This document shows positions 2,618-38,936 of a DNA stretch of 64,000 bases, one piece after another. Numbering within the stretch: position 1 is the stretch's first letter; each line of letters opens with the position of its first letter. The notes beneath the pieces were generated by a model. That model worked only from the letters and a program-made list of their open reading frames with translations, made no database searches and was not told the DNA's origin. The DNA lies in assembly GCA_963793455.1 (NCBI GenBank), contig CAWCAK010000008.1:100752-164751 (forward strand). Direction: 5' to 3'. Source of the stretch: an uncultured Bacteroidota bacterium. Its GTDB lineage: Bacteria; Bacteroidota; Bacteroidia; Bacteroidales; GCA-2748055. The position numbers and the translations under genes were made by a program.

Positions 2618-3373
2618 CTATCGCTTCATCCTCTTCAGGATCTTCTCAGCATCCCCTTGATAGAAGTGATTTGCTGAAGAAGCAATCATGGCCAGCTGCC
2701 TTCTCGCACGCTCTGTCTCATCCATAGCCAGCAGGCAACCTGCCAGGTAATACTCAGCCTTCTGAATGAACAGGTTATCGCTGTGCTCGATCACTTTTGT
2801 GAAGGACTCACTTGCATCAACATACTTGCTGAGCCGCAAATTGGAGACACCTACACCAAAGTCTGCTTCAACTTTCTCACTATTCTTTTCAAGTACTTCG
2901 TTGTACCAGAAAACAGCATCTTCAAAATCACCCTTAAGATAAGCTACCTCCGCATTGTTCATGGTTACCTTAATCACATCGTCTTCCATTGAACGGTTGG
3001 TAAGAACCAGTTCATAAGGCTTCATGTACTTCACAAAGAGGTCACTATTGGATAAGGGTCGTCCAAGTACCGTTGCCAGTCCAATAGCTACAAGCAGCGC
3101 CAATGCTGCTGATGCTGCATAATGCCATGGCCTGGTAAACCGAAAAACCTTTCTTCCGGTCTCAGAGCGTCGTGTTTCTTCCCGCAGGTCAGTCAACTGG
3201 GCCCGGAAATCCAACACATCAGTGTCGGCAATGGCTTCATCAACCTCTTTATAGAGGTCCAGATCCACCAGCAATTCCGGACTGGCATTGAGCTCCTGCT
3301 CAAACCTGGATAACTCTCTCTCAGAGAGATCATTGTCCAGGTACTTTTGTAAAATGTGCCTGTCGCGTTTCAT
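2618..3373 (-). CDS. Single-pass membrane protein with C-terminal TPR-like repeats, possible anti-sigma-like factor
   Basis: Start chosen at MKRDRHILQKYLDNDLSERELSRFEQEL (ATG 3373). One TM (AASAALALLVAIGLATVLG). TPR-like helices (AEVAYLKGDFEDAVFWYNEVL, AEYYLAGCLLAMDE). The function is a guess from architecture. Confidence 0.45.
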   Translation of the reverse strand: MKRDRHILQKYLDNDLSERELSRFEQELNASPELLVDLDLYKEVDEAIADTDVLDFRAQLTDLREETRRSETGRKVFRFTRPWHYAASAALALLVAIGLATVLGRPLSNSDLFVKYMKPYELVLTNRSMEDDVIKVTMNNAEVAYLKGDFEDAVFWYNEVLEKNSEKVEADFGVGVSNLRLSKYVDASESFTKVIEHSDNLFIQKAEYYLAGCLLAMDETERARRQLAMIASSANHFYQGDAEKILKRMKR

Positions 3374-4009
3374 ATCATTAAATTTAAATTGGTTACAAGG
3401 ATTCAGGATCATCCTGCTACACCAAATGCGGCTTTGCAGTTTTCCACCTGTATTCCCTGGCACTTGCATGCACGCTTGCATGCTACCCAGAGTGTGCGTA
3501 CATAAAAGAACGCTTAACTTTCAGAACTTCCGTTTCCGGTTGTCCCTCCCATGTCGTCGTCAGGATCTATTCTACCCCAACCAACTTCACGGATCAATAT
3601 CTTTTGCGGTCTTCGACCGTCTTAAAGTCAAATCTATCTTCCCTTGGAAGTCGAATTATTTCCTCGGAGGGTTCAGAACGTCTGCATCCAGGATCATCCT
3701 AGTAATTCCACCTTTTAAGAAATTAGTTCTTTTTCCTGGATCTTGTCTTTTGCGAATGATTCGAAATTTACAGTTTTCATGGCTTTTCAATTAGGGGTTA
3801 AACATCTGTTTGTTGTTTGTTTTCAACTGTTAATTCCCAAATACCTTCAAACGTTACCCAAAAAAATGAAAAAAAATCATGGAATAAATTTATCAACTTA
3901 CTATATATAATTGTTTATCAATTTTACAAATCATTAAAAAAATACATTAATTTTCAAAATATTTGCTTGCATGTTCCAATATATTCTTTCATTTACTGAT
4001 TAATATTTA

Positions 4010-5562
4010 AGAAGAAAATTCGATGTAATTATCAGATTCCTTTTTGTTGTTTGTTGTTTACTCGAGCAATAGAATTTTCAATCGCCCAAGAAGATTCTGA
4101 TGAGGATCCCGAACTTCGGGACGCTGATCTATGAGTATGGAGTACAAGGGGTAGGACAATGTTAATGTACAACCTCAATCTTGATACAGCTGAGTATTAT
4201 TTGAAAGAAGCCTTAGCTTACAGTAGCTCAAGTTATGATGAATTAGATGAGAGAGTTGCTAGCAACCACTATATACTTAGCTTCAGTTTACAGACGAATA
4301 TACAACAATAATAAAGCTTTGTATCATTTAAACAAAGCTGAAGTATATTAAATGAATATGATCCAAACATATTCTATTTGGTAGCATATATAACAATAAG
4401 GGAAATATTAATAAGATCAACTATGATATGTATCGGACCAAAGAGTACTATGAATATGCCCTTGATTGGTTAATTAAAAACGGTTATCCAGAACACTAAC
4501 AATTTCTCTCACATATACTCCAACTATATCAAATTCTGTTTGAATTAGATGAATATGATCTTGCGGAGGAACAATTATCTAATGGTCGATATAAATATCA
4601 CTAAAAGTTAGTCCGAACACCGAGTTCCGATTTTATATCACAAATGCTACGACATATTCAAATCTCGGAAAATTTGAGTTAGCAGAATATAATTTTAATA
4701 AAGCGCATGAAGTACTGGAAAATGAGTTGAAAGATGAGATAAATTCAAGTTCAATTACATATTATAACAACATCATTGATTTCAATATTCTGTATGAGGA
4801 CTATGAACAAGCTATGTCAAATTGTGAAAGGCCTTGTGTTCTTAGAATCGTTAGATCCCAATTCTATTAAGAATAAGACAATTCACCAAGCTGACATTCT
4901 TTACCGTATCGCTACAATCTAATGCACCGACAAGGGAATATGTAAAGCGCTCTTGACAATGCAAATCAGGGATAAAGAACTTGAATGATTTTTTCAATCG
5001 ATTATCCTTTTATGATGATAATTCTTATGTTCGATTTGAATATACCTCAGTCTTACCTCATACTATATATACTTAAAAGTCAGGTTGCTATTAGACAAGT
5101 ATTAACAATCTAATAACATAGAAGCATTAACAGAATTCATATGATTCATATCAACTATCTATTCGATTCTTAAACTCATTAAAGCTTTCAATGCAAAATG
5201 AGAATAGTAAGTTTTTTGCTACAGCCGCAATCCTTGAAGTATACAACGAAGCCATATGTGTGGGGAAGTTGTTGTATGAGATGACGGGTGAGATGGAGTA
5301 CCTGGAGAAGTCGTTTGAGTTTACGGAGAGCAGCAAATCGTTTGCGTTTTTAGCGAGATCAAGGATGTGGAGGCCATGGAGTTTTCGGATCTTCCGGCCA
5401 ATGTGAGGGAAAAGGAGCAGCGGCTCATCGGGGAGATCCAGGGATACGAGGAGATGCTCTATGAGGAACAGCTTGCAGCGGATCCCGACAGCAGCCAGAT
5501 TGCCTTTCTTAAGGACAAGCTGTTTCAGCTGAAGGATGACTACGGGGACCTGATGCAGGAGA
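4010..5562 (+). pseudogene. Degraded N-terminal TPR-repeat portion of the TPR-CHAT gene
   Basis: TPR-like peptides are readable only in short pieces that switch frame and hit stops. Examples: LMYNLNLDTAEYYLKEALAY, ASVYRRIYNNNKALYHLNKAEVY, YDMYRTKEYYEYALDWLIKNGYPE, ITYYNNIIDFNILYEDYEQAMSNCE. From 5191 the frames are longer (SKFFATAAILEVYNEAICVGKLLYEMTGEMEYLEKSFEFTESSKS, then EAMEFSDLPANVREKEQRLIGEIQ) with shifts near 5370 and 5635. Confidence 0.65.
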
Positions 5563-9268: not shown

Positions 9269-9326
9269 CTGTAAAACCATTCTGTTTTCGTAACTTTCAT
9301 TATTCTAAGGAAATATCACCGGTTTC

Positions 9327-9872
9327 TTGAAGAACGATGAAGTCCATATGGTCAGGGAGCTCCGGGCCGGCCGGGAGAGTGCCTTCTCCTGGCTCTTCAA
9401 GGAATACTACAGGCCCCTGACTGTATACGCCTTCAAGTATATTTCAGACATGGAATCTGCCAGGGAAATTGTGCAGGACCTGTTCGTGTACCTCTATGAG
9501 AACAGGAAGACAATCCTGATTACAGGCTCCCTGAAATCATACCTGTACCATTCGGTCCGGAACCGCAGTTTGAACCTGGTCAGAAAGGAGCAGACCCGCC
9601 GGAAACACATGGCGCAGTTGCAGGGTGAACGGCATTCTTCTGATGATCCCGAGTCCATGATCCGGGAAACCGAAATGGAGCACCAGGTTTTTCTGATCAT
9701 CTCAGCACTCCCGCCGCAATGCAGGAGGGTCTTTCTGTTAAGCAGGGAAAAAGGATTGTCCAATGGTGAGATCGCCGGGCAACTGGAGATCTCCAAGCGA
9801 ACTGTGGAGAAGCAGATCTCCAATGCTTTGAAGGCAATCCGGTCAGGAATAAGCGACCTGGCAAAACCATAG
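9327..9872 (+). CDS. ECF-type RNA polymerase sigma-70 factor (FecI-like)
   Basis: Region 2 FSWLFKEYYRPLTVYAFKYI...AREIVQDLF. Region 4 LPPQCRRVFLLSREKGLSNGEIAGQLEISKRTVEKQISNALKAI. Belongs with the FecR/TonB-receptor genes further downstream. The last 228 nt lie inside repeat 9645-9907. Confidence 0.9.
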   Translation: MKNDEVHMVRELRAGRESAFSWLFKEYYRPLTVYAFKYISDMESAREIVQDLFVYLYENRKTILITGSLKSYLYHSVRNRSLNLVRKEQTRRKHMAQLQGERHSSDDPESMIRETEMEHQVFLIISALPPQCRRVFLLSREKGLSNGEIAGQLEISKRTVEKQISNALKAIRSGISDLAKP

Positions 9873-9907
9873 CGTCCACAACTTTTTCCAATCCTTCTGT
9901 ACGTGTT
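9645..9907 (+). repeat. Direct repeat copy 1 (sigma gene 3' end plus about 35 nt downstream)
   Basis: Aligns at constant offset 1440 with 11085-11347. I count 20 mismatches in 263 nt (about 92%). Confidence 0.9.
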
Positions 9908-11084
9908 CCTGTTTTCGTCATTCCCTCCGGTGTGAATTCTTCAAGCAAAGATAATCAGCGATGTAGTACTTGGATTTTAACATTTTTGGGTCTCTCGACA
10001 TCTCGCTTTCATGTAATTCCGGACAAAAAGGGACATGAAAGCGGATATTCGCTCGCGTGAAATCTTGTTTTAGATAAATATTATTTTTATATACGCATTA
10101 TTAAACAAATAAATAATTATTAATTATCCTTTGATAGATAATTACTAATATGCAATTGGCTTAATATACCGTATCGAGTATTAATCAATATCTATCTTGA
10201 GATGAAGTGGGAGATCATTAAGAAGTTTTCCGCCAGGAACAAGATTTGTTTTAGCTACAAGGACGTGTTAGCGGAATATCCCGATAAGGATCCCAGCTAT
10301 CTTTCCAAAGCACTTGCCACCATGGTAAGAAAGGGCATGTTAATGAAATTATGCCGGGATGTTTACCACGTTATTCCGCTGAGTGCAGATCCGCGGACCT
10401 ATACTCCTGACAGTAGACTTGTTGCCATGTGCGTGATGAAAGGGAGGGACTATTACATTGCTTACTCCTCGGCGATGGATATCCACGGATTGACAGATCA
10501 ACCAGGCCTGAAAACAATGGTAGTAACTTCCCGGCAGGTGCAACCGTCCATTCACACTATCGCCGGCAAGGAATTTCATTTTATAAGCCATGCCTACTAC
10601 AGGTTTTTCGGGTATGAAGCGACCTGGGTAACCACCCGGGAGCAAGTCATGGTCAGTGACCTGGAAAAGACCATTGTAGATGCCGTGTCAAAACCGCGTT
10701 TATCTGGAGGGATCCCGGGGGTCGGGAAAGCCATATTCCGCTCCAAAGAAAGAACTGATCAACAAAAATTGTTCTACTATTTATCCAGGAACGGGAGTCA
10801 TGTCGCGAAGAAGCGCTATTTGTTCCTCTCCGATTCTCTTGGAATGGGATGGACACCTGACCATGAAAGAATGCTTAAAGAAAGCGGGTCAAGCATTTCC
10901 CTGTTAGATCCCGCGGGTCCAATTCAGGGTGTGAAAAACTCCCGTTTTGGCCTGAAGATCAATTTTGAGGTAGACACCTTGATGGATCGCTAATAATTTT
11001 TATTGGTTGCATAAGGAGTGTTCAGGCTTGAGCGGTCGAGTTGATCACGTGTAGTTCAACAGGGTGTCCCAATGACGAAAACAG
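9908..11084 (+). mobile_element. 1177-bp insertion bounded by 14-bp perfect inverted repeats, carrying an AbiEi-like gene
   Basis: Left terminus CCTGTTTTCGTCAT (9908-9921); right terminus ATGACGAAAACAGG (11072-11085). The right end GGGTGTCCCAATGACGAAAACAGG matches the left end of insertion 32598-33080 in reverse complement. AT-rich interior (10060-10200). Hairpin CGCTTTCATGT...ACATGAAAGCG at 10004-10043. No transposase or integrase. Confidence 0.6.
10202..10993 (+). CDS. AbiEi-family (type IV toxin-antitoxin) antitoxin / COG5340-like transcriptional regulator
   Basis: N-terminal wHTH-like region (FSYKDVLAEY...LSKALATMVRKGMLMKLCRDVYHVIP). The motifs YYIAYSSAMDIHGLTDQP, VVTS, SDLEKTIVDAV and the tail RFGLKINFEVD follow the order I recall for Bacteroides AbiEi proteins. 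No AbiEii gene follows. Confidence 0.7.
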   Translation: MKWEIIKKFSARNKICFSYKDVLAEYPDKDPSYLSKALATMVRKGMLMKLCRDVYHVIPLSADPRTYTPDSRLVAMCVMKGRDYYIAYSSAMDIHGLTDQPGLKTMVVTSRQVQPSIHTIAGKEFHFISHAYYRFFGYEATWVTTREQVMVSDLEKTIVDAVSKPRLSGGIPGVGKAIFRSKERTDQQKLFYYLSRNGSHVAKKRYLFLSDSLGMGWTPDHERMLKESGSSISLLDPAGPIQGVKNSRFGLKINFEVDTLMDR

Positions 11085-11312
11085 GATCCTGAGTCCAGGA
11101 TCCGGGAAACCGAAATGGAACACCAGGTTTTCCTGATCATCTCTGCACTCCCGCCGCAATGCAGGAAGGTCTTTCTGTTGAGCAGGGAAAAAGGATTGTC
11201 CAATGGTGAGATCGCCGGGCAACTGGAGATCTCCAAACGAACCGTGGAAAAGCAGATATCCAATGCTTTAAAGGCAATCCGGTCAGGGATAAGCGAACTG
11301 GCAAAACCATAG
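11085..11312 (+). pseudogene. 3'-terminal fragment of an ECF sigma gene (region 4 only)
   Basis: Encodes DPESRIRETEMEHQVFLIISALPPQCRKVFLLSREKGLSNGEIAGQLEISKRTVEKQISNALKAIRSGISELAKP with no 5' part. Differs from the intact gene in 3 of 75 residues. Confidence 0.9.
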
Positions 11313-11347
11313 CATCTACAACTTTTTCCCGTCCCCCTGTACGTGTT
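11085..11347 (+). repeat. Direct repeat copy 2 (displaced sigma 3' end)
   Basis: See 9645-9907. Contiguous with the fecR-like gene downstream. Confidence 0.9.
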
Positions 11348-11388
11348 TTATCTGTTTGTAGTGTCCTGTGTATAGAAACCACTTTACA

Positions 11389-12243
11389 ATGAAACCTGAA
11401 AAAGAGATCGACAAGGAATTGTTGAGCAATATGGAATTATACAGATCCATCGATATGGAAACGGACTGGAAGCAGGTACGCGGAAAAATGGGATTTGACA
11501 GGAAAAGAAGCCTGACGAGGATATGGTGGGCCGCTGCCGTTGCAGTCCTGCTGGTTGGTGCCGGATTCCTGGCACAGCAATATGATGTTTTCACACCCGA
11601 CTTGATCGTTGCAGTTGCCACCGGTGACCAGAATGAAATATCTCTCCCGGATGGATCGGTGGTAACCCTCAATAAAGATGCGGTGCTGCAATATCCGGAA
11701 AGGTTCAGCCGAAACCGGCGGGAATTAAAGCTTTCCGGGGAAGCATTTTTTGAGGTTGAACCTGATCCGGGAAAACCTTTCGTAGTGGAAGCCGGAACCG
11801 AAGCCATCGTGGAGGTGTTGGGGACTTCATTTAACATCAAAGCAGAGAAGGAAAAAAGGTCCGTTAAAGTCATGGTAGTGAAGGGCCGGATTGCTTTTTC
11901 AATTAGCAGGCAGCAGGATTCCAGGATCATCCTGGAAAAAGACCAGCAGGCCATTCTGGCTGAAGGAGGGATTACCAGGCTTGAGAAGAGAAACAACAAC
12001 TTCCTGAGCTGGAAGACCGGGATACTCGAGTTTGACCAGGCAGGAATTCTGGAAGTTTTAAGTGATCTGCAGTCGCATTACAAAATGGACATTGTGCTTC
12101 AGCCAGGTGTAAACAGGGACCTCTGTTTTACATCCATTATAGATAACCAGGAGCTGGAAAGTGTGCTGGACGAGATTTCCCTGGTGCTGGGGCTGGAATA
12201 CGCTTATGTGGAGAAACAGGTTGTCATCTCTTCCACGGAATAG
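11389..12243 (+). CDS. FecR-family anti-sigma factor / signal transducer
   Basis: Cytoplasmic N-terminus, one TM (IWWAAAVAVLLVGAGFLA). FecR domain (LPDGSVVTLNKDAVLQYPE...LSGEAFFEV...PFVV), then a DUF4974-like C-terminus. ATG at 11389 preferred over the GTG at 11368. Confidence 0.85.
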   Translation: MKPEKEIDKELLSNMELYRSIDMETDWKQVRGKMGFDRKRSLTRIWWAAAVAVLLVGAGFLAQQYDVFTPDLIVAVATGDQNEISLPDGSVVTLNKDAVLQYPERFSRNRRELKLSGEAFFEVEPDPGKPFVVEAGTEAIVEVLGTSFNIKAEKEKRSVKVMVVKGRIAFSISRQQDSRIILEKDQQAILAEGGITRLEKRNNNFLSWKTGILEFDQAGILEVLSDLQSHYKMDIVLQPGVNRDLCFTSIIDNQELESVLDEISLVLGLEYAYVEKQVVISSTE

Positions 12244-12252
12244 GGAGGAATC

Positions 12253-14874
12253 ATGAATATGTTGTTCACCATATGGATTGCGCTTTATTCGGTTCTTTAC
12301 ATTCAGCCGGAAGCACCCCGGGAACCTCTCCTGGAAAAGGAAGTAAGCATCATGGAGAGAACAGCCAGCATCAAAGAGATTCTGGTCGAACTGGGTAATG
12401 CAGGCGGATTCACCTTCAGCTATGGAAACGAGGTTCCGGCAGAAAGGATCATCAGTGTGAAAGGAGAGAAGAAAAGCATCAGGGCCCACCTGGACCTCCT
12501 GTTTGAAGATGATTCCCTGGATTATGTTGAAAAGGGCAAGAAAGTCCTGATCATCCCTTCCACAGCCCGCTCAAAGGCTATGGTCAGCCAGACTGTCAGG
12601 GGAAGGATCCTCGACACCGATTCAAAACAGCCTCTGGTGGGTGTAAATGTTTTACTCGATTCGGAGGGACCGCAAAAGGGAACAATCACCGATGGAGATG
12701 GATATTTCAGGTTTAAGGATGTTCCCGTAGGAAGGCATGCGATCAAGTGTTCCTATGTAGGATATGAGTCAAGAGACTTATCCAACCTGGTGGTGGGATC
12801 GGGAAAAGAGGTTGTAGTGGATGTGGAAATGGTTGAATCGGTGTACCGGATATCCGAAGTAAAGATCACCAACAGGCATGATATGACCGGTCCTATCAAT
12901 GACCTGGCCGTAGTGAGCGGAAGAAGCTTCTCCTCCTATGAAGTGGAAAACTATCCGGGCACCCTGTCGGATATATCCCGGGTAGCCATTTCATATCCGG
13001 GGGTTGTATCTCCAAATGATGGTCAGAACCATATTGTTATCAGGGGAAACAGTCCAAAGGGACTTCAATGGAGGCTGGAGGGGATCGAGATCCCGAACCT
13101 TAATCATTTCTCCAATATCGGGGCATCCGGGGGTGGGGTGAACGTCGTGAGCAACAATATGCTTGCAGCTTCTGATTTTCTCACGGGAGCATTTCCTGCG
13201 GAGTATGGGAACGCCCTCTCAGGGGTATTTGACATGCGGCTAAGGACCGGGAACAATGAGAGGCATGAGCAGACATTCCAGTTGGGATTGATCGGTACAG
13301 AAGTAATGGTGGAAGGCCCCATCAGCAGATCCAACAACACCACCTATATTGCCCAATACCGGTACAGCACCCTCAAGCTTTTGGAGAAAATGGGGATTGA
13401 TCTGAATAGCGTACCGGATTTCCAGGATCTCTCCTTCAAGATCTATCATCCCACCAGGAAGCTTGGGATTTTTTCCCTGTTCGGGATCGGGGGGCTCAGC
13501 CATGAAACCGGGACAGATGGCTATGAAATGAATTCCAACCTTGCCACGATTGGGCTCAGCAACAGCTATCCGGTGGATGATAAAACTTTCGTTCGGACTA
13601 TACTGTCAGGCTCATGGAGATCCTATTCGTGGTATCAGGAAAGGAACATCGGTTCACCGGAGGTCCCCATCAACAGGATCTGGGATACAAATATCTCTGA
13701 CTATACCGTCAAGGGTTCCCTCACATTAAACCGGAAAATCAACTCCAAACATAAGATCAAGGCAGGAGTCATTTATGAAATGGGATGGAATGACTCATAC
13801 ATGGGATGGTATTCCGATACCCTCTACAACTGGTATTCTGATCCTTCACACGCCGGATACCTGACCCAGAAATTCAACCATACCTTTGTAGATGCCACTG
13901 AACATGCCGGTACACTCCAGGCATTCACCAACTGGAGCTACCGCATCGGGGAGTCTGTTACGCTGAATACCGGGGCACACTTTATCCAGTTTTACCTGAA
14001 CAATAACTATTCCATCGAGCCCAGGCTGGGGATCAGGTGGAATATCAATTCACGCCATACACTAGCGGCAGGGGCCGGGATCCACAGCCGGAAAGAGTCC
14101 ATGACCCTTTATACTGGGGAGCTTACCCTGCATGACGGAACGGTGATTTCCCCCAACAGGGACCTGGAGCTTTCCAAGGCCCGGCACTATGTACTGGGAT
14201 ATAAATTCCATATTTCTGATTTCATGCATCTGAATGCCGAGGCATATTACCAGGACCTTTATGATATCCCGGCATATCCATTCCCCCCCTACTTCTCGAC
14301 CATCAATTTCGATTATGGTTTCGAGGGCAATGTGCTCACCAATTATGGAACAGGATACAATACAGGGATTGAGGCAGGACTCGAGAGGTACATGATCAAT
14401 GGTTTCCATTTCATGCTCAATGGATCGCTATACGATTCCAGGTACGAAAACAAACTGGGGGAAAAGCTGCACACCAAATACAATGGATCCTATGCGGCCA
14501 ATGGACTCATCGGTAAGGAATTCAAAGTCGGAACCACAAAACAACATGCCCTCAGTGTCACTTCACGGTTTATCCTGGCAGGGGGGATGCGGCAACTGCC
14601 CATCGACCGGGAAGCTTCCATTGAGAATGGTAAAACAGTCTATTACTGGGATAACGGTTTTTCTGAAAAGAATTCAGACTACTTCCGGATAGATGTGATG
14701 TTCAAGTTACGGCGCAACAAATCAAGGTATTCGGGTGAATGGAGCCTGGACCTGATGAACATACTGAACAGGCAGAACATGCTTTACGAATACTGGGACA
14801 TCAGTATCAACGATTTCCGGGCAGAATATCAGAATCCATTCCTGGTATTCATTAACTACAGGATTCAATTCTAA
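12253..14874 (+). CDS. TonB-dependent outer-membrane receptor with STN-like and carboxypeptidase-regulatory-like N-terminal domains
   Basis: CarbopepD_reg-like VRGRILDTDSKQPLVGVNVLL...DGDGYFRFKDVPVG. Plug-like NHIVIRGNSPKGLQWRLEGIEIPN. Long beta-barrel region ending in the aromatic residue ...INYRIQF. Sits in a sigma/FecR context. Confidence 0.8.
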   Translation: MNMLFTIWIALYSVLYIQPEAPREPLLEKEVSIMERTASIKEILVELGNAGGFTFSYGNEVPAERIISVKGEKKSIRAHLDLLFEDDSLDYVEKGKKVLIIPSTARSKAMVSQTVRGRILDTDSKQPLVGVNVLLDSEGPQKGTITDGDGYFRFKDVPVGRHAIKCSYVGYESRDLSNLVVGSGKEVVVDVEMVESVYRISEVKITNRHDMTGPINDLAVVSGRSFSSYEVENYPGTLSDISRVAISYPGVVSPNDGQNHIVIRGNSPKGLQWRLEGIEIPNLNHFSNIGASGGGVNVVSNNMLAASDFLTGAFPAEYGNALSGVFDMRLRTGNNERHEQTFQLGLIGTEVMVEGPISRSNNTTYIAQYRYSTLKLLEKMGIDLNSVPDFQDLSFKIYHPTRKLGIFSLFGIGGLSHETGTDGYEMNSNLATIGLSNSYPVDDKTFVRTILSGSWRSYSWYQERNIGSPEVPINRIWDTNISDYTVKGSLTLNRKINSKHKIKAGVIYEMGWNDSYMGWYSDTLYNWYSDPSHAGYLTQKFNHTFVDATEHAGTLQAFTNWSYRIGESVTLNTGAHFIQFYLNNNYSIEPRLGIRWNINSRHTLAAGAGIHSRKESMTLYTGELTLHDGTVISPNRDLELSKARHYVLGYKFHISDFMHLNAEAYYQDLYDIPAYPFPPYFSTINFDYGFEGNVLTNYGTGYNTGIEAGLERYMINGFHFMLNGSLYDSRYENKLGEKLHTKYNGSYAANGLIGKEFKVGTTKQHALSVTSRFILAGGMRQLPIDREASIENGKTVYYWDNGFSEKNSDYFRIDVMFKLRRNKSRYSGEWSLDLMNILNRQNMLYEYWDISINDFRAEYQNPFLVFINYRIQF

Positions 14875-32431: not shown

Positions 32432-32597
32432 GCGACCTGTTTCAGGAATGAATCTGCAGTATGGACTTTACAAACTTTATGACTGTTTGATCCCCGCAGG
32501 GAGCTTTTCACCCTTCCACTCCTTGCTGAAGTCCTTCCAATAGGTGCCTATGGTTCTCTTGATGTCCTTCCGGAGGACCAGGAGTCCGAACAGGTTT
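32432..32597 (-). repeat. Direct repeat copy A (displaced 3' end of the symporter gene plus 45 nt downstream)
   Basis: 166 nt, identical to 33081-33246 except one synonymous position (GGAGGACC versus GGAGTACC). Confidence 0.95.
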
Positions 32598-33080
32598 CCT
32601 GTTTTCGTCATCGGGACACCCTGGTTGGCCTGTTTTTCTTTGCTTACCGCTTAGGATTCCGCCTATCATCCCCTGTTCCAGGCATTTCAGGTCCTGTCCG
32701 GTCTCATCAGGGCTGCCACGCCTGACACATGCTATTGTGCACGCGATGTGGATCTATACGAGGGCTTGAAGGCGAGAGTGACCGGGAGAGCGGAAGGGCA
32801 ATCGGATGGGAGAAGATCCTGAAGATATATGTAATATCCGTTTATTATACCTTAAAGGTAACTTAGTACTTATTACTTATACCTGCAGGTACATGTAATA
32901 TCCAAAATGGCACTTTTAAAGTGCACTAACTGGATATTACTTGTACTTCATACCTGTGGCAATCTTCACAAAGAATCATTCGTTAAAACAGCGGGACACC
33001 GGATCATCCCAGGATCAGGTATCTACATTGAAGATTGTCAGTGGTTTAAGAAATCACAGTGACAAAAGTGATGAAAACAG
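32598..33080 (-). mobile_element. 483-bp ORF-less insertion related to 9908-11084
   Basis: Starts CCTGTTTTCGTCATCGGGACACCCTGG and ends ...GTGATGAAAACAG(G). Both ends resemble the ends of the first insertion. The central AT-rich part has ATGTAATATCC boxes and a nested palindrome. Confidence 0.6.
32889..32946. other. Nested palindrome / potential cruciform or protein-binding site
   Basis: GTACATGTAATATCC (32889-32903) pairs with GGATATTACTTGTAC (32932-46; 15 bp, 1 mismatch). It encloses the perfect palindrome GCACTTTTAAAGTGC (32910-32924). Confidence 0.6.
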
Positions 33081-33246
33081 GCGACCTGTTTCAGGAATGA
33101 ATCTGCAGTATGGACTTTACAAACTTTATGACTGTTTGATCCCCGCAGGGAGCTTTTCACCCTTCCACTCCTTGCTGAAGTCCTTCCAATAGGTGCCTAT
33201 GGTTCTCTTGATGTCCTTCCGGAGTACCAGGAGTCCGAACAGGTTT
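33081..33246 (-). repeat. Direct repeat copy B (3' end of the intact symporter gene)
   Basis: See 32432-32597. Confidence 0.95.
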
Positions 33247-34871
33247 GGAATGGTCATGATGGCGATGGTGATGTAGGAGAGGTTCCAGACTATGGTGGTA
33301 TCGGTAAAGGAGGCAATGAAGAATCCCACCACGTAGATCAGCCTGTAAACAACCACATATTTGGTACCGAACAGGTAGGTCACCGCCCGGCCGCCGTAAT
33401 AGGACCAGGAGATGGCCGTCGAAAAGGCAAACAGCAGCAACCCGATGGAGACAATGTACTGTCCCCAGTCACCCATGATACTGCGCTTAAAGGCTTCTGT
33501 GGTAAGGGCTGCGCTGTGGATCAGTGATTTACCGGTGAAATAGACCTCCCCCTCCCCCGAGTTAAGTTCGGAAAACTGCACCACTCCCCCGCTCACCGGT
33601 ATGGGACCGGTATACTTTTCACCACCCCGGGTCACCACAACGTGTTCTGCGAAAGATTCTGCATGGATGATGGTGATCCCTTCAGTGCTTACCCTGCCGT
33701 CGCTGACCTGCAGGGTACCGTTAAAAACCGCCAGGGATGTATCGTTGATGAAGGACCGGCTCATCAGGGCCCTGTCCTCATTATCTGATTCTGAATACGT
33801 TCCGTCCAATACCACCAGGTCAGCCTGTTCAAACCGGTTTTCGATCTTCTCGTTCCAAACCCCCGAAGAGAGAAGCACCAGTCCGGTGAGTGTACAGATG
33901 ATGATGGTATCGATGAACGGTTCCAGGATGGCTACCATTCCCTCCGATACCGGTTCCTGTGCTTTGGCAGCACTATGCGCAATAGGTGCAGAACCCTGCC
34001 CCGCTTCATTGGAGAAGAGGCCCCGGTTCACCCCTTTGTTAAAGGTAAATGCAAACCCGGCACCCAGGAATCCTCCCACCGCTGCACTTCCTGTAAAGGC
34101 ATCGGTAAAAATGGAACCCAGAGAAGGAAGGATGTTCTGGTAGTTGGTGGCAATCACAATGATGGCTCCCAGGAAATAGATCAGTGCCATCATCGGGACC
34201 AGGGTGGAAGTCACCTTGGCGATCCGCTTGATCCCCCCTATGATCACCAGTCCGAGCAGTATGGCCAGGATTCCCCCTGTAAGGGCATGGTTGATCCCGA
34301 AAGAGCTGAACATGGAGTCGGAGATGCTGTTGATCTGGGGAAGGCTGCCGGTCCCGAAAGAGGAGAGGATGGTGGCAAAGGCAAAGAAAGCACCCAGCAC
34401 TGCACCGGTCTTGATGATCTTCCCCGAACGGGTGGTGATATTCATCCGTTTCTTCATATAGTACATGGGGCCGCCGGAAATAGATCCATCGGGCAGGATA
34501 TCCCTGTACTTGTGTGAAATGGTAACCTCCACAAACTTGGTGCACATTCCGAACAAGGCTGTGACCAGCATCCAGAACAGGGCAGCCGGTCCACCCAGGT
34601 GAATGGCCAGAGCCACCCCGGCAATATTCCCTGTGCCTACCGTTCCGCTGAGGGCGGTGGTCAGCGCCTGGAAGTGCGAGGTATCTCCTACATCTCCAGC
34701 CCGGTCATATTTACCCTTGACAATGCGGATGGCATGCCCGAAATACCTGAACTGGGGCAATCCCAGGTAGAGGGTGAAAAAAATACCGGTTCCAAGCAGG
34801 AAAAAAACAAACCACTGGTGGCCACCCAGGTAATTATTCAGAAACAGCAGGAATTCATTGATCTTTTGCAT
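33126..34871 (-). CDS. Sodium:alanine (amino acid:cation) symporter, AGCS family
   Basis: Start [10 protein letters not shown] (ATG 34871). Motifs [27 protein letters not shown] and [18 protein letters not shown], with many TM helices. The 30 codons upstream in the track ORF run into the IS end and are probably not translated. Confidence 0.85.
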
Positions 34872-36055
34872 GCTCCCAAAAATAACAATATTTTCGGGCA
34901 GTACTTCCTCGCGGGTTCCTGCAGGTTCCTGCTGCCGACCGCTTATGCGGTTCGCTTGCACAGGCCATCCCCGTCTGCCCGACGGTTAAAATATTCTTTG
35001 CTGCATTTACATCTGCATTTTCCTCATGCCCACATACCTGGCATCTGAAAACAGCCTGTGATACTCTGTTTTCTTTTGCCGTGTACCCACAACATGAACA
35101 TCGCTGTGAGGTATGCCGGGAATCGACCTCAACCAGCATCCCTCCCTTCCAAAAGAGCTTGTATTCAAGCTGCCTCCTGAATTCAAACCACCCTGATCCA
35201 GTATGGACTTGTTCAATCCGGACTTTGCCTTGACATTCCTGCCCGGTTCTTCGATGTTCCCCTTGCCGATGCACTCATACTCCTTGATCTGCAATCCCTC
35301 CACATATACCTTTGCTTGGTTTTTGCTTATTTCGGTACTCAGCTTGTGAAGAAAGTCTGAACGTACATTGGCAATCGTATGATGAAGCCTTGATATTTTT
35401 CTCTTTTGTTTCTTCCAGTTGTTTGATCCTTTCTTCTTTCTTGATAGTTTCCTCTGCTCCCTGGCCAGCTGCTTCTTCATGTTTCCTGAAACTGTTCACT
35501 CCCTCAACCAGGGTGCCATCTGAAAAGGCAGCAAAACATTTTATCCCTGCATCAATTCCTATCTCCGAATCAGAAGCATGCTTCCCAATTTCAATCGTCT
35601 GCTCCACCTGGATGGAAGCAAACCACTGCCCGCCCCGGCTTGTGATGGTGATGTTCTTGATTGTTCCGCTTATATCACAGCTCTTGTGAAAACCTATCCA
35701 GCCAATCTTTGGCAAGAAAGATCCTGCGGTTATCAATCTTAAAGCCCTGGGGAAAACGAATGCCATCACTCATGCCTTTCTTCTTGAACACCGGCATTCG
35801 CTTCAATGGCTGGCTCTTATCAAAACAATCCTTGAAAGCCCTTTCCAGGTCCTTGAGCTTTTGCTGCAATACCTGTGAAGGGCACTCCTTCAAAAAACCA
35901 TACTCTTCGGATTGTTTCCAAAGGGTAAGCCAGAAGGCCAGTTCATTATACCAGAGGATCGCTTGCCTCTTCTCCAACCGATCCAGGTTCATCGCCAGGG
36001 ATTTGTTCCAGAGAAACCGTGCAGAACCACAATACCGGGCCAGCTTGTATCTCAA
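34855..36055 (-). pseudogene. tnpB: TnpB (OrfB, RNA-guided nuclease family), at least 3 frameshifts
   Basis: Four overlapping ORF pieces read in order. They contain MRYKLARYCGSARFLWNKSL, RuvC-I IGIDAGIKCFAAFSDG, KKQLAREQRKLSRKKKGSNNWKKQK, RuvC-II KVYVEGLQI, the zinc finger CSCCGY...CQVCGH, and RuvC-III NADVNAAKNIL. Confidence 0.85.
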
Positions 36056-36603: not shown

Positions 36604-38936
36604 TCACTCACCGAACAATCCGGACAGAACCTCTGCCAGCTGATCCCCTGTAAAGGGCTTTGGCAGGTATGCATCAAAGCCCTCCTTAAGGAACCTGGCC
36701 CTGTCACCCACCAACGCATGGGCAGAATGGGCAACGACTTTCACATCGTTGAAGCGTTCCTTCACGATCCTCATGGTGTCGGTACCGGTCAGAACCGGCA
36801 TCCTGACATCCATGAAGATGAGCTCAGGCCGGGGTTGATGCTCCATCAGTTGCAGGGTCTCATACCCCGTGGAGGCAGGAAGCACAGCATGCCCCATGCC
36901 TGAAAGCAGTTCACTGAACAGGTCCAGTGAATCCTGCTCATCATCCACCACAACGATTCTCAGTACCCGTGAAACCGCTTTGGCTGTATCAGGCTTGCGG
37001 TCTGCTGATTGTGTAGGCTCCAGTTTCCGGGAAGCTTTCATGGGAAGCTCAACCTGGAAGAGGGCACCCTCTCCTTCCGCCGATTCCACCCAGATCCTTC
37101 CACCCATCATATGCACCAGGTTCTTACAGATGGCCAGCCCCAGCCCGGTACCCCCGAATTTCCTGGTATTGGATCCGTCCACCTGCCTGAACTGGTCGAA
37201 GATCAGGTTAAAATTCTCAGGAGCAATCCCAACACCTCTATCCTGTACATACAGGATGGCGTTCTGATCCGTTGATGCCCTCCGGCAACCTATGGTCACC
37301 TGTCCCGATTCAGTGAATTTGACGGCATTGTTAACAAGGTTTTTCATGATCTGCGTCAGCCTGATCACATCGGTCTCGATCTCACATTCGCTGTTTTTCT
37401 CTTCGGATACAATTTCAATGCCTTTCTTGTCCAGGCGATTTAGTTCATCAAGCGCATACTGCTTCATATCGCTGATAAGCACCGAGAGCTTCAGCTTTCC
37501 ATATACAATGGGTAATTGTCCACTCTCTATCTTTGCCAGGTCGATGATGTCCGAGATCAGGGCAAGCAATAATTCCGAGTTCCTGACGATCCTTTTCACG
37601 TACATGGACCGGGCCTCTTCATCCAGTCCCGGGTTTACCAGCAGGTTGGAAAATCCCACGATGGAATTCATGGGGGTCCTGATTTCGTGGGACATGTTGG
37701 CCAGGAAGGCCGATTTCAGTTTGTCGCTCTCCTCGGCATGCTGCTTGGCCCTTTTCAGCTCCTCCATGTCCCTTCTTCTTTCCGTCACATCCCTGATGAT
37801 GGTAAGGATCATGTCCTTCTCCCCCTTCTCACTGGGAATGATCACATTCCTGGAAGAGACAAACAGGTAATGCCCCGACTTATGCCTGGCCCTGTAGTCC
37901 ACAAAAAGTGCACCATCCCGGACCAGCTTCAATCCCTGTTCCTCCAGCATGACCCGGTCATCCGGATGGATGATCTCCATCCATCCCAGGGCCATGAATT
38001 CATCCTGTGTATAACCAAAGGTGTTATGAAATGCAGCATTGATCAGGATGATCTCCCGGTCTGCTGTAAACAATCCGATGGGATCTTCTGCTGCATCGAA
38101 CAGGGTGCGGTATAGCCGCTCACTCTCCCTCAGTGCTATCTCGGTCTGCTTTCCCTTGGTCTTGTCTGCGGCAATGGCGATCATCAGTTTCTCCCCGGTC
38201 ATTGCAAAAGCATGAGCGGTGACCTCCAGCCAGCGTACCTTGTCCTTCCCGATGGTGACCTTTTGTTCCACACGCCCGTATCCCTTCTCCAGCACCTGCC
38301 TGAAGAGCTCCCCCTCTGTTCCCAGTATATTGTCTTCTGAATGTTCCTCCGGAATCATCTGCATCAGGTGCTCCGGCCCTTTGCCAAACAGCTCCATCGC
38401 TGCTTTATTGGCATCCAGCACCCTGCCTGCCTTCCCCTCTCCAGCTCAATGACCACGATGGCTTCGTTGGAGTTCCTGAAAATGAATTCAAACTTCTCTT
38501 TGTCCTGCACCTTGGCCATCAGTTGCTTGTATTGCCCTGAAATATCCATGGTGATCCCACCTATGATAACCCCTTTCCCATGTTCATCCCGTTCGATCAC
38601 TGTTCCGCGGTTATAGTACCACTGCCACTCTCCCTGGTGGTCCTTCACCCGGAATTCGATCTCGTACAGCGAATCCTCACCGTAGATCAGGCGGCGGATC
38701 CGTTCCAGGTTTTCACTTGCATCATCGGGATGGATGTTCTTGTAAATGGAGGGCTTTGAAGGATCAAATTCCTCCGGAACAATTCCCAGCACCTCCAGCA
38801 GAGAGGGGCTCACCACCAGTCTCCTTTCCAGATTGTTCCAGTGCCACCAGTGGAGGCCGATCCGCTCGGAGGCTGCAACAAATCCTGCGGACGGATCAGA
38901 AAGCTCCCTGGGTATGGAATAGTGCTTTTTTGTCAT
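36604..38936 (-). pseudogene. Hybrid sensor histidine kinase (PAS-PAS-HisKA-HATPase-REC) with one frameshift
   Basis: ORF 38364-38936 holds the PAS regions and ORF 36604-38421 the rest, joining at ...IVVIELE / VLDANKAAMELFG with a shift in 38421-38440 (GGCAGGCAGG). H-box SHEIRTPMNSIVGFSNLL, DRGVGI, GGTGLGLAICKNLV. Receiver domain VVVDDEQD...FMDVRMP...LPKPF. Confidence 0.85.

Follow-up and report, generated by a model that had tools for sequence, protein, structure and literature searches.

How does the 3′ end of an extracytoplasmic function (ECF) sigma factor gene come to stand on both sides of a small insertion, in two copies that differ by 8%? The locus lies in a 64,000-nt stretch of contig CAWCAK010000008.1 from an uncultured Bacteroidota bacterium of the order Bacteroidales (positions 100,752 to 164,751; hereafter the window), in which a sigma gene is separated from the fecR-type anti-sigma gene and the TonB-dependent receptor gene of its operon. 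Our analysis indicates that the insert, at 9908–11085, is very probably a non-autonomous mobile insertion cassette (MIC) of the IS1634 family of insertion sequences (ISs), and that the long duplication of its target was made when it inserted. Read in this way, the event is of a known kind, an MIC with a long target duplication, and the divergence of the two copies is the one remaining puzzle.

The upstream and downstream copies of the sigma 3′ end (copies A and B; Table 1) align without a gap over 263 nt (9645–9907 and 11085–11347) at an offset of 1440, with 92.4% identity and 20 mismatches, 15 of which are transitions. Fourteen of the mismatches fall within the last 75 sigma codons, where 11 are synonymous and three conservative (M/R, R/K and D/E), and the other six lie within the 35 nt past the sigma stop codon. 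An initial annotation of this DNA had reported the same repeat length, offset and number of mismatches, all of which were found again on realignment, as were its 14 coding differences and three changed residues. Its outline of the locus also holds: inverted repeats bound an insertion between duplicated sigma 3′ ends, the sigma gene is whole, and the copy downstream of the insert continues into fecR and the receptor gene. When the limits of the element are set by comparison with its other copies, the target duplication measures 262 bp (9646–9907 and 11086–11347), with an ambiguity of 1–2 nt. The differences run close to the element on both sides: on the left, A-specific bases continue to 9896, at a distance of 11 nt from the cassette, and on the right, B-specific bases begin at 11090, only 5 nt away. 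A 56-nt block is identical between the two copies.

It is the ends of the insert that reveal its origin. A search for the termini, of the kind proposed in the initial annotation, found two copies in the window and about 60 loci elsewhere with unrelated flanks. The 26-mer CCTGTTTTCGTCATYGGGACACCCTG of the right terminal inverted repeat (IRR) occurs exactly in 22 genome loci, in metagenome-assembled genomes (MAGs) of Bacteroidales and other Bacteroidia (one genome per species was scanned), and in 38 metagenome loci; the flanks differ at each of these loci, many of which lie at contig ends, as expected of a repeated element. At its right end the cassette is identical in 27 of 27 positions to the ends of 1651-bp ISs and of other cassettes among the loci L001–L022, and its left 85–96 nt are 74–82% identical to the left ends at L013 and L011. 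Likewise, 1651-bp elements at L004, L008, L043 and other loci end in the same sequence as the cassette, over 26–27 nt at the IRR and 13 nt at the left terminal inverted repeat (IRL). Elements of 1651–1653 bp that share these ends have a gene for a protein of 504 aa, which the model NF033559 (IS1634 family transposase) recognizes with 354 bits, against a cut-off of 100, and which also matches Pfam DDE_Tnp_1.

Alignment with the ends of such a full IS shows what the cassette has retained, about 90 nt on the left, where a variant of the subterminal motif GGGTGTCCC is found, and about 30 nt on the right. The variant, read from this comparison as GGGTCTCTC at 9978–9986, is a candidate transposase-binding site. 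What remains of the transposase gene start now forms a hairpin, which occupies the corresponding place in the cassette (ATGTTTGTCCGGGGAAAAAAG in the IS, ATGTAATTCCGGACAAAAAGG here) and is kept in an 85%-identical cassette from another metagenome (L033). The insert therefore has the makeup of an MIC, a passenger abiEi gene between IS ends with no transposase, and it shows what is expected of an IS1634-family derivative: ends in common with an autonomous IS, abutting direct duplications and multiple copies in different contexts.

The interior of the cassette agrees largely with what had been annotated at the outset. The terminal inverted repeat, described there as a perfect 14 bp, is indeed perfect and extends over 16 nt. 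The AT-richness ascribed to the interior applies to the 5′ non-coding part (GC 0.32 at 9908–10201 and 0.24 at 10050–10201) and not to the gene itself (0.47, with 0.51 for the whole window). The hairpin with its 11-bp stem at 10004–10043 was reproduced, with a folding energy of −23.3 kcal/mol, and the lone AbiEi-like gene was borne out by a full-length PADLOC match (AbiEi, PDLC02267, 1.3e-61, residues 2–261). Its product stays under the Pfam and NCBIfam cut-offs, scoring 27.7 bits with NCBIfam TAA_AbiEi, and PADLOC alone identifies it clearly. There is no AbiEii nucleotidyltransferase toxin gene in the cassette or adjoining it, where the neighbors are the sigma gene and fecR (abiEi stops at 10993 and the cassette at 11085), and the cargo is therefore not a complete AbiE system. 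Operons of abiE are autoregulated and have an AT-rich upstream region with an inverted repeat; by analogy, the imperfect repeat formed by GATAGATAATTACTAATA and TATTAATCAATATCTATC at 10133–10196 is a candidate promoter and operator for AbiEi autoregulation. A scan with a sigma-70 promoter model, which does not suit Bacteroidota, performed no better than on shuffled sequence, and a search of 9900–11400 for TAnnTTTG gave no match. No intrinsic terminator is predicted on the plus strand of the insert, and neither the element nor its immediate neighborhood encodes an integrase.

Elsewhere, these ends surround different cargo. Cassettes of 1.33–1.35 kb with identical IS ends carry a gene for a 344-aa YhcG/DUF1016 PDDEXK nuclease (L006, L018, L038 and L065), and one of 1.53 kb encodes a 345-aa protein without a family match (L017). 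L013 (MAG contig CAVZPP010000019.1) has a cassette of 2384 bp at 2884–5267, again between these ends, in which a gene for an AbiEi-like protein of 272 aa is accompanied by a divergently oriented 292-aa open reading frame (ORF) that has an HxK-like motif and no match in Pfam or NCBIfam; the pair may be a two-gene defence cargo. Beyond the cassette L033, other metagenomes hold a 1175-bp cassette with related ends (L029–L031), and AbiEi homologs of 70–86% identity are mostly found on contigs of 0.9–2 kb, the size of a cassette, as is characteristic of a cassette present in many copies. Replacement of the transposase gene by other genes seems to have happened repeatedly in this IS lineage.

Are long duplications a peculiarity of the sigma locus? 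Duplications were called wherever both flanks of an element were available, and they vary widely in length. Abutting copies are 100% identical over 21 bp (L017), 42 bp (L004, on a 3.36-Mb contig), 84 bp (L071) and 108 bp (L043 and L056), and 98% identical over 116 bp (L013). A degenerate cassette copy at L070 and L002, with decayed ends and broken cargo ORFs, has a duplication of 76–84 bp at 92% identity. The flanks of the cassette at L024–L026 consist of a low-complexity tandem repeat, in which no duplication could be called. The sigma 3′ end was not found beside related cassettes elsewhere.

A second case lies within the window itself. The 16-nt terminus, searched with up to three mismatches, matches six times in the window, where 0.58 matches are expected, and the pattern is not due to chance. 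Two of the six bound a second insert at 32598–33081, a derivative resembling a miniature inverted-repeat transposable element (MITE), in which no ORF of 90 aa or more was found. Its 31-nt IRR matches 11057–11086, and a subterminal GGTGTCCC motif is common to both elements. The second insert is flanked by direct repeats of 165–166 bp (32432–32597 and 33081–33246) that are 99.4% identical and comprise the 3′ end of a Na:Ala symporter gene with about 45 nt downstream of it, the site being the gap between two convergent genes. Because the same geometry recurs at an unrelated gene, and no element carries ready-made surrogate ends for arbitrary targets, the repeats must have been made at insertion.

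In conjunction, these observations lead us to propose the following model. An orphan abiEi-like gene would have replaced the transposase gene of a Bacteroidales IS of the IS1634 family, and the resulting cassette would be mobilized in trans by the 504-aa DDE transposase from a full-length 1.65-kb copy elsewhere. The transposon ends may be joined to the target at points on its two strands that lie tens to hundreds of bases from each other, and repair of the gaps would then leave the intervening target sequence as a long direct repeat, of 262 bp at the sigma gene and 165 bp at the second copy. A duplication that spans a stop codon would rebuild the interrupted gene on one side. Since each of the two duplications in the window does span one, neither insertion is disruptive, which is probably the reason that both have survived.

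The long variable duplications of 8–514 bp reported for IS1549 and IS1634, for which no mechanism is known (PMC2266710), speak for this model. Several points weigh against it. Duplications of 5–6 bp are the norm in the family (PMC2266710), and ISGka5 makes one of 6 bp (PMC8024623), so that long ones are confined to certain members. Many metagenomic contigs with a complete IS have no detectable duplication, long or short. We did not use them as evidence either way; short flanks or assembly joins across a multicopy repeat may account for them, which leaves the distribution of duplication lengths poorly sampled. A tblastn search of the 64-kb window gave no match to the transposase, so that mobilization in trans is inferred. 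Neither an empty site nor a close relative was found, and all neighboring proteins are singletons in their 90% clusters, each of them from one 431-kb contig in NCBI/ENA. Finally, the recombination that we invoke below for the divergence of the copies is inferred from geometry only.

Table 1. Features of the sigma locus and of the second element, in window coordinates
Feature	Position	Strand	Description
ECF sigma-70 factor gene	9327..9872	+	181 aa, intact; Pfam Sigma70_r2, Sigma70_r4_2, Sigma70_ECF; identical protein P0121 on one 431-kb NCBI/ENA contig only; last 75 codons within the upstream duplication copy
Target-site duplication, copy A	9646..9907	+	262 bp (263 from 9645); sigma codons 107–181, stop codon and 35 nt downstream; abuts left end of cassette
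Mobile insertion cassette (very probable)	9908..11085	+	1178 bp, CCTG...CAGG; IS1634-family ends, no transposase, AbiEi cargo
Left terminal inverted repeat (IRL)	9907..9922	+	16/16 complementary to 11071–11086; core CCTGTTTTCGTCA from 9908
Subterminal motif GGGTCTCTC	9978..9986	+	Variant of GGGTGTCCC, which full ISs have about 80 nt inside the IRL; from end comparison
Hairpin, 11-bp stem	10004..10043	+	−23.3 kcal/mol, z = −3.0
Imperfect 18-nt inverted repeat (GATAGATAATTACTAATA / TATTAATCAATATCTATC)	10133..10196	+	83% complementary; AT-rich tract just upstream of abiEi start
Orphan abiEi-like gene	10202..10993	+	263 aa, only ORF in cassette
Right terminal inverted repeat (IRR)	11071..11086	-	GGGTGTCCC motif on inner side at 11062–11070
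Target-site duplication, copy B	11086..11347	+	Contiguous with fecR; open 65-codon sigma region-4 ORF at 11115–11312
fecR-type anti-sigma gene	11389..12243	+	Pfam FecR, FecR_C; P0001 99% identical; now 1.44 kb further from sigma gene
TonB-dependent receptor gene of the operon	12253..14874	+	Pfam CarboxypepD_reg significant; Plug 20.6 bits, just under the 23.9-bit cut-off
Target duplication of second element, distal copy	32433..32597	.	165–166 bp, 1 mismatch
Second element, MITE-like derivative without cargo	32598..33081	-	484 bp, inverted relative to the first; ends with 1 and 3 mismatches
Target duplication of second element, other copy	33082..33246	.	Completes 3′ end of minus-strand Na:Ala symporter gene
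Na:Ala symporter gene	33126..34961	-	Pfam Na_Ala_symp

Three further observations concern the surroundings of these elements. The 16-mer TTCTGTTTTCGTAACT at 9280–9295, 12 nt past the stop codon of a hydrolase gene and about 32 nt before the sigma start, resembles the IS terminus with three mismatches; it could have arisen by chance (the window is expected to contain 0.58 such matches), or be the relic of an IS end or a sequence that resembles a target. With this 16-mer in view we considered a larger unit of the sigma gene together with the cassette, and rejected it, as no resident 5′ part of a sigma gene lies upstream. A frameshifted TnpB/IS605 OrfB pseudogene (34855–36055, minus strand), with the domains Cas12f1-like_TNB, OrfB_IS605 and HTH_OrfB_IS605 on separate ORF fragments, abuts the symporter gene and overlaps its called start. 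Self-comparison of the window also showed a 70-nt direct repeat of 81% identity at 2348–2417 and 37638–37707.

Why, then, do the two copies of the sigma 3′ end differ by 8%? Between copies A and B, dS is 0.24 and dN/dS is 0.072. If copy B had evolved neutrally beside a constrained copy A, 53–64% of the coding differences would be expected to be non-synonymous, and the probability of three or fewer among 14 is 0.002–0.017. The initial annotation had concluded that both copies diverged under purifying selection and that a target-site duplication made in situ was ruled out. The first part stands, the pattern not being that of a dead copy decaying in place; the second was overstated, since the repeat originated as a target duplication, and it is only its present divergence that needs a second event. 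Mutagenesis of the type caused by diversity-generating retroelements was dismissed as a source of the differences, as the mismatches are not adenine-specific and no reverse transcriptase is present.

The age of the cassette bears on what this second event may have been. Neither its 26-nt IRR nor its 13-nt IRL departs from the family consensus, whereas about five substitutions would be expected in these 39 nt had the ends aged in place to the same extent as the repeat, assuming a symmetrical clock; by this measure of undecayed ends, the insertion looks young. The copy at L070 provides the contrast, its 92%-identical duplication being accompanied by the degenerate ends and broken cargo genes expected of an old insertion. 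We consider the likeliest explanation of the divergence, at about even odds, to be homologous exchange, at a later time, with a lineage diverged by about 8%. Such an exchange may have replaced one flank and ended at the border of heterology. Alternatively, an excised circle of the cassette and one repeat may have re-integrated in a Campbell-type event, after which, whatever the position of the crossover, no polymorphic site would be the same in the two copies. Import of the cassette by an ordinary double crossover does not fit, for it would leave the copies identical over part of their length, and the mismatches run to 5 nt and 11 nt of the borders. The three amino-acid differences, compared with outgroup sigma factors, give a mixed signal on polarity.

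We speculate, as a rather unlikely extension of this idea, that the cassette with one 262-bp copy could act as an integrase-free mobile unit targeted by homology. A circle of the cassette and one repeat would be released when the two long copies recombine in a RecA-type reaction; after transfer, it would enter the orthologous sigma gene of a lineage diverged by about 8% by Campbell-style integration and bring a foreign, functional gene end with it. If true, this would explain both the differences right up to the two borders and the young-looking ends of the cassette, and the long duplications of IS1634-type elements would gain a role in spread between lineages.

We looked for exact matches to AbiEi, FecR, two sigma starts, P0121 (the protein identical to the sigma factor), the hydrolase and a 139-aa neighbor, and recovered no close relative and no empty site; next-best matches have 54% identity for FecR and 61% for the sigma factor. 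The only close relative is a Logan contig (L023, from ERR11523668) of 2362 bp, which is 99.53% identical to 11207–13568 of the window and carries the B allele joined to fecR, so that copy B is the same as an allele on an independent contig. This contig starts inside copy B, exactly at the first 31-mer that contains the B-specific base 11237. Logan uses k = 31, and the start at a distinguishing 31-mer therefore points to a branch in the assembly graph, with both alleles, or another sequence sharing the 56-nt block, present in that sample too. The contig shows neither the presence nor the absence of both alleles on one molecule.

That branch is among the grounds for asking whether the structure is real and its divergence an artefact of assembly or population, the contig having threaded the alleles of two populations through copies A and B. 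The source appears to be that single 431-kb contig, taken to be part of a metagenome-assembled genome, and a 262-bp repeat is hard for short-read assemblers. However, A- and B-specific bases lie 11 and 5 nt from the cassette, and both junctions between allele and cassette must exist in reads; two populations could give such a chimera only if each had the cassette at this very site, which returns us to the same question; and the spectrum of substitutions, rich in transitions as described above, is a natural one. We regard this explanation as rather improbable. Divergence in place after an old insertion, with both copies under purifying selection, would require copy B to be translated as a useful 65-codon region-4 ORF, for example as a free sigma-4 domain interacting with FecR or with promoter DNA. 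Copy B does have an open, ATG-initiated frame without a stop or an indel, the low dN/dS would follow, copy B may be transcribed given that no terminator is predicted on the plus strand of the cassette, and diverged long duplications are known at old insertions such as L070. The 39 nt of terminal sequence that match the family consensus, where about five changes would be expected, argue against it, as do the decayed ends and cargo that accompany divergence at L070 and are not seen here; we consider it distinctly improbable.

Two other explanations concern the origin of the repeat itself. The initial annotation had likened the locus to the geometry left by phage 21 and e14 in icd, that is, to a site-specific integrating element that brings a surrogate sigma 3′ end and, in this case, has since lost its integrase. 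As in icd, the target gene is kept whole by the copy of its 3′ end on the upstream side, and beyond the element there is a second copy, displaced and diverged, which here runs on into the remainder of the operon; the two copies also look like orthologous alleles. Unlike phage 21 and e14, which use a tyrosine integrase, a fixed att site and a surrogate end borne by the element, the relatives of the cassette use a DDE transposase that makes the repeat from whatever target is hit, and they occupy a variety of unrelated targets, of which each has a duplicated flank of its own. No sigma fragment was found with related cassettes elsewhere, nor does it form part of the element, and the repeat ends exactly at the transposon termini. 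With neither an integrase nor a fixed target, the analogy fails, and we judge such an origin very improbable. Bacteroidota have many paralogous operons of ECF sigma factors, FecR proteins and TonB-dependent receptors, and an 8% divergence would suit paralogs; both would fit the decay of a second full sigma gene in tandem, its 5′ part removed by the insertion of the cassette or by a deletion. Yet homology starts within 1–2 nt of the right end of the cassette and stops within 1 nt of the left, which is the signature of a target duplication, the 35 nt past the sigma stop codon are duplicated too, and the same geometry is found at the symporter gene. This last explanation is barely credible, and insertion of an MIC with duplication of its target very probably accounts for the repeat.

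What is the relevance of this assignment? An apparent integrative element without an integrase becomes recognizable as a member of a class, the IS1634-family MICs. The search that led to it flags a widespread and apparently uncharacterized IS lineage in Bacteroidales and other Bacteroidia, with defence-type cargo (AbiEi and the YhcG nuclease). Long variable target duplications have been documented for few ISs and without a mechanistic model (PMC2266710), and the lineage offers dozens of natural insertions, with duplications of 21–263 bp, in which they can be studied. Such duplications can make intragenic insertions harmless, the 3′ end of the target being regenerated. The diverged repeat pair at the sigma gene is, in addition, a concrete case in which to study repeats made by a transposon against homologous recombination between lineages.

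The cassette can be compared with several known systems. Its cargo matches AbiEi profiles over the full length, and the AT-rich region upstream of the gene contains an inverted repeat, as in the AbiE type IV toxin–antitoxin and abortive-infection system, which consists of AbiEi and AbiEii. Unlike that system, the cassette has no AbiEii, and the nearest homologs of its cargo are likewise solitary on cassette-sized contigs. With MICs such as MIC231 of the Bacillus cereus group, and with MITEs, the two elements of the window share IS-type ends that enclose a passenger gene, or nothing in the case of 32598–33081, without a transposase, as well as flanking target duplications, multiple copies and a presumed mobilization in trans. 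The parent of MIC231 is IS231, of the IS4 family, whereas here it is an IS1634-family element; the cargo here is a defence-type regulator, and the duplication is hundreds of bases long and regenerates the end of the target gene. Closest in kind are IS1634 of Mycoplasma mycoides and IS1549 of Mycobacterium smegmatis, with which the lineage has in common an IS1634-family DDE transposase in its autonomous members, short terminal inverted repeats and long variable duplications, 21–263 bp here compared with the 8–514 bp reported (PMC2266710). In contrast to these two, the hosts are MAGs of Bacteroidales and other Bacteroidia, and the copy at the sigma gene has lost its transposase and carries cargo in its place.

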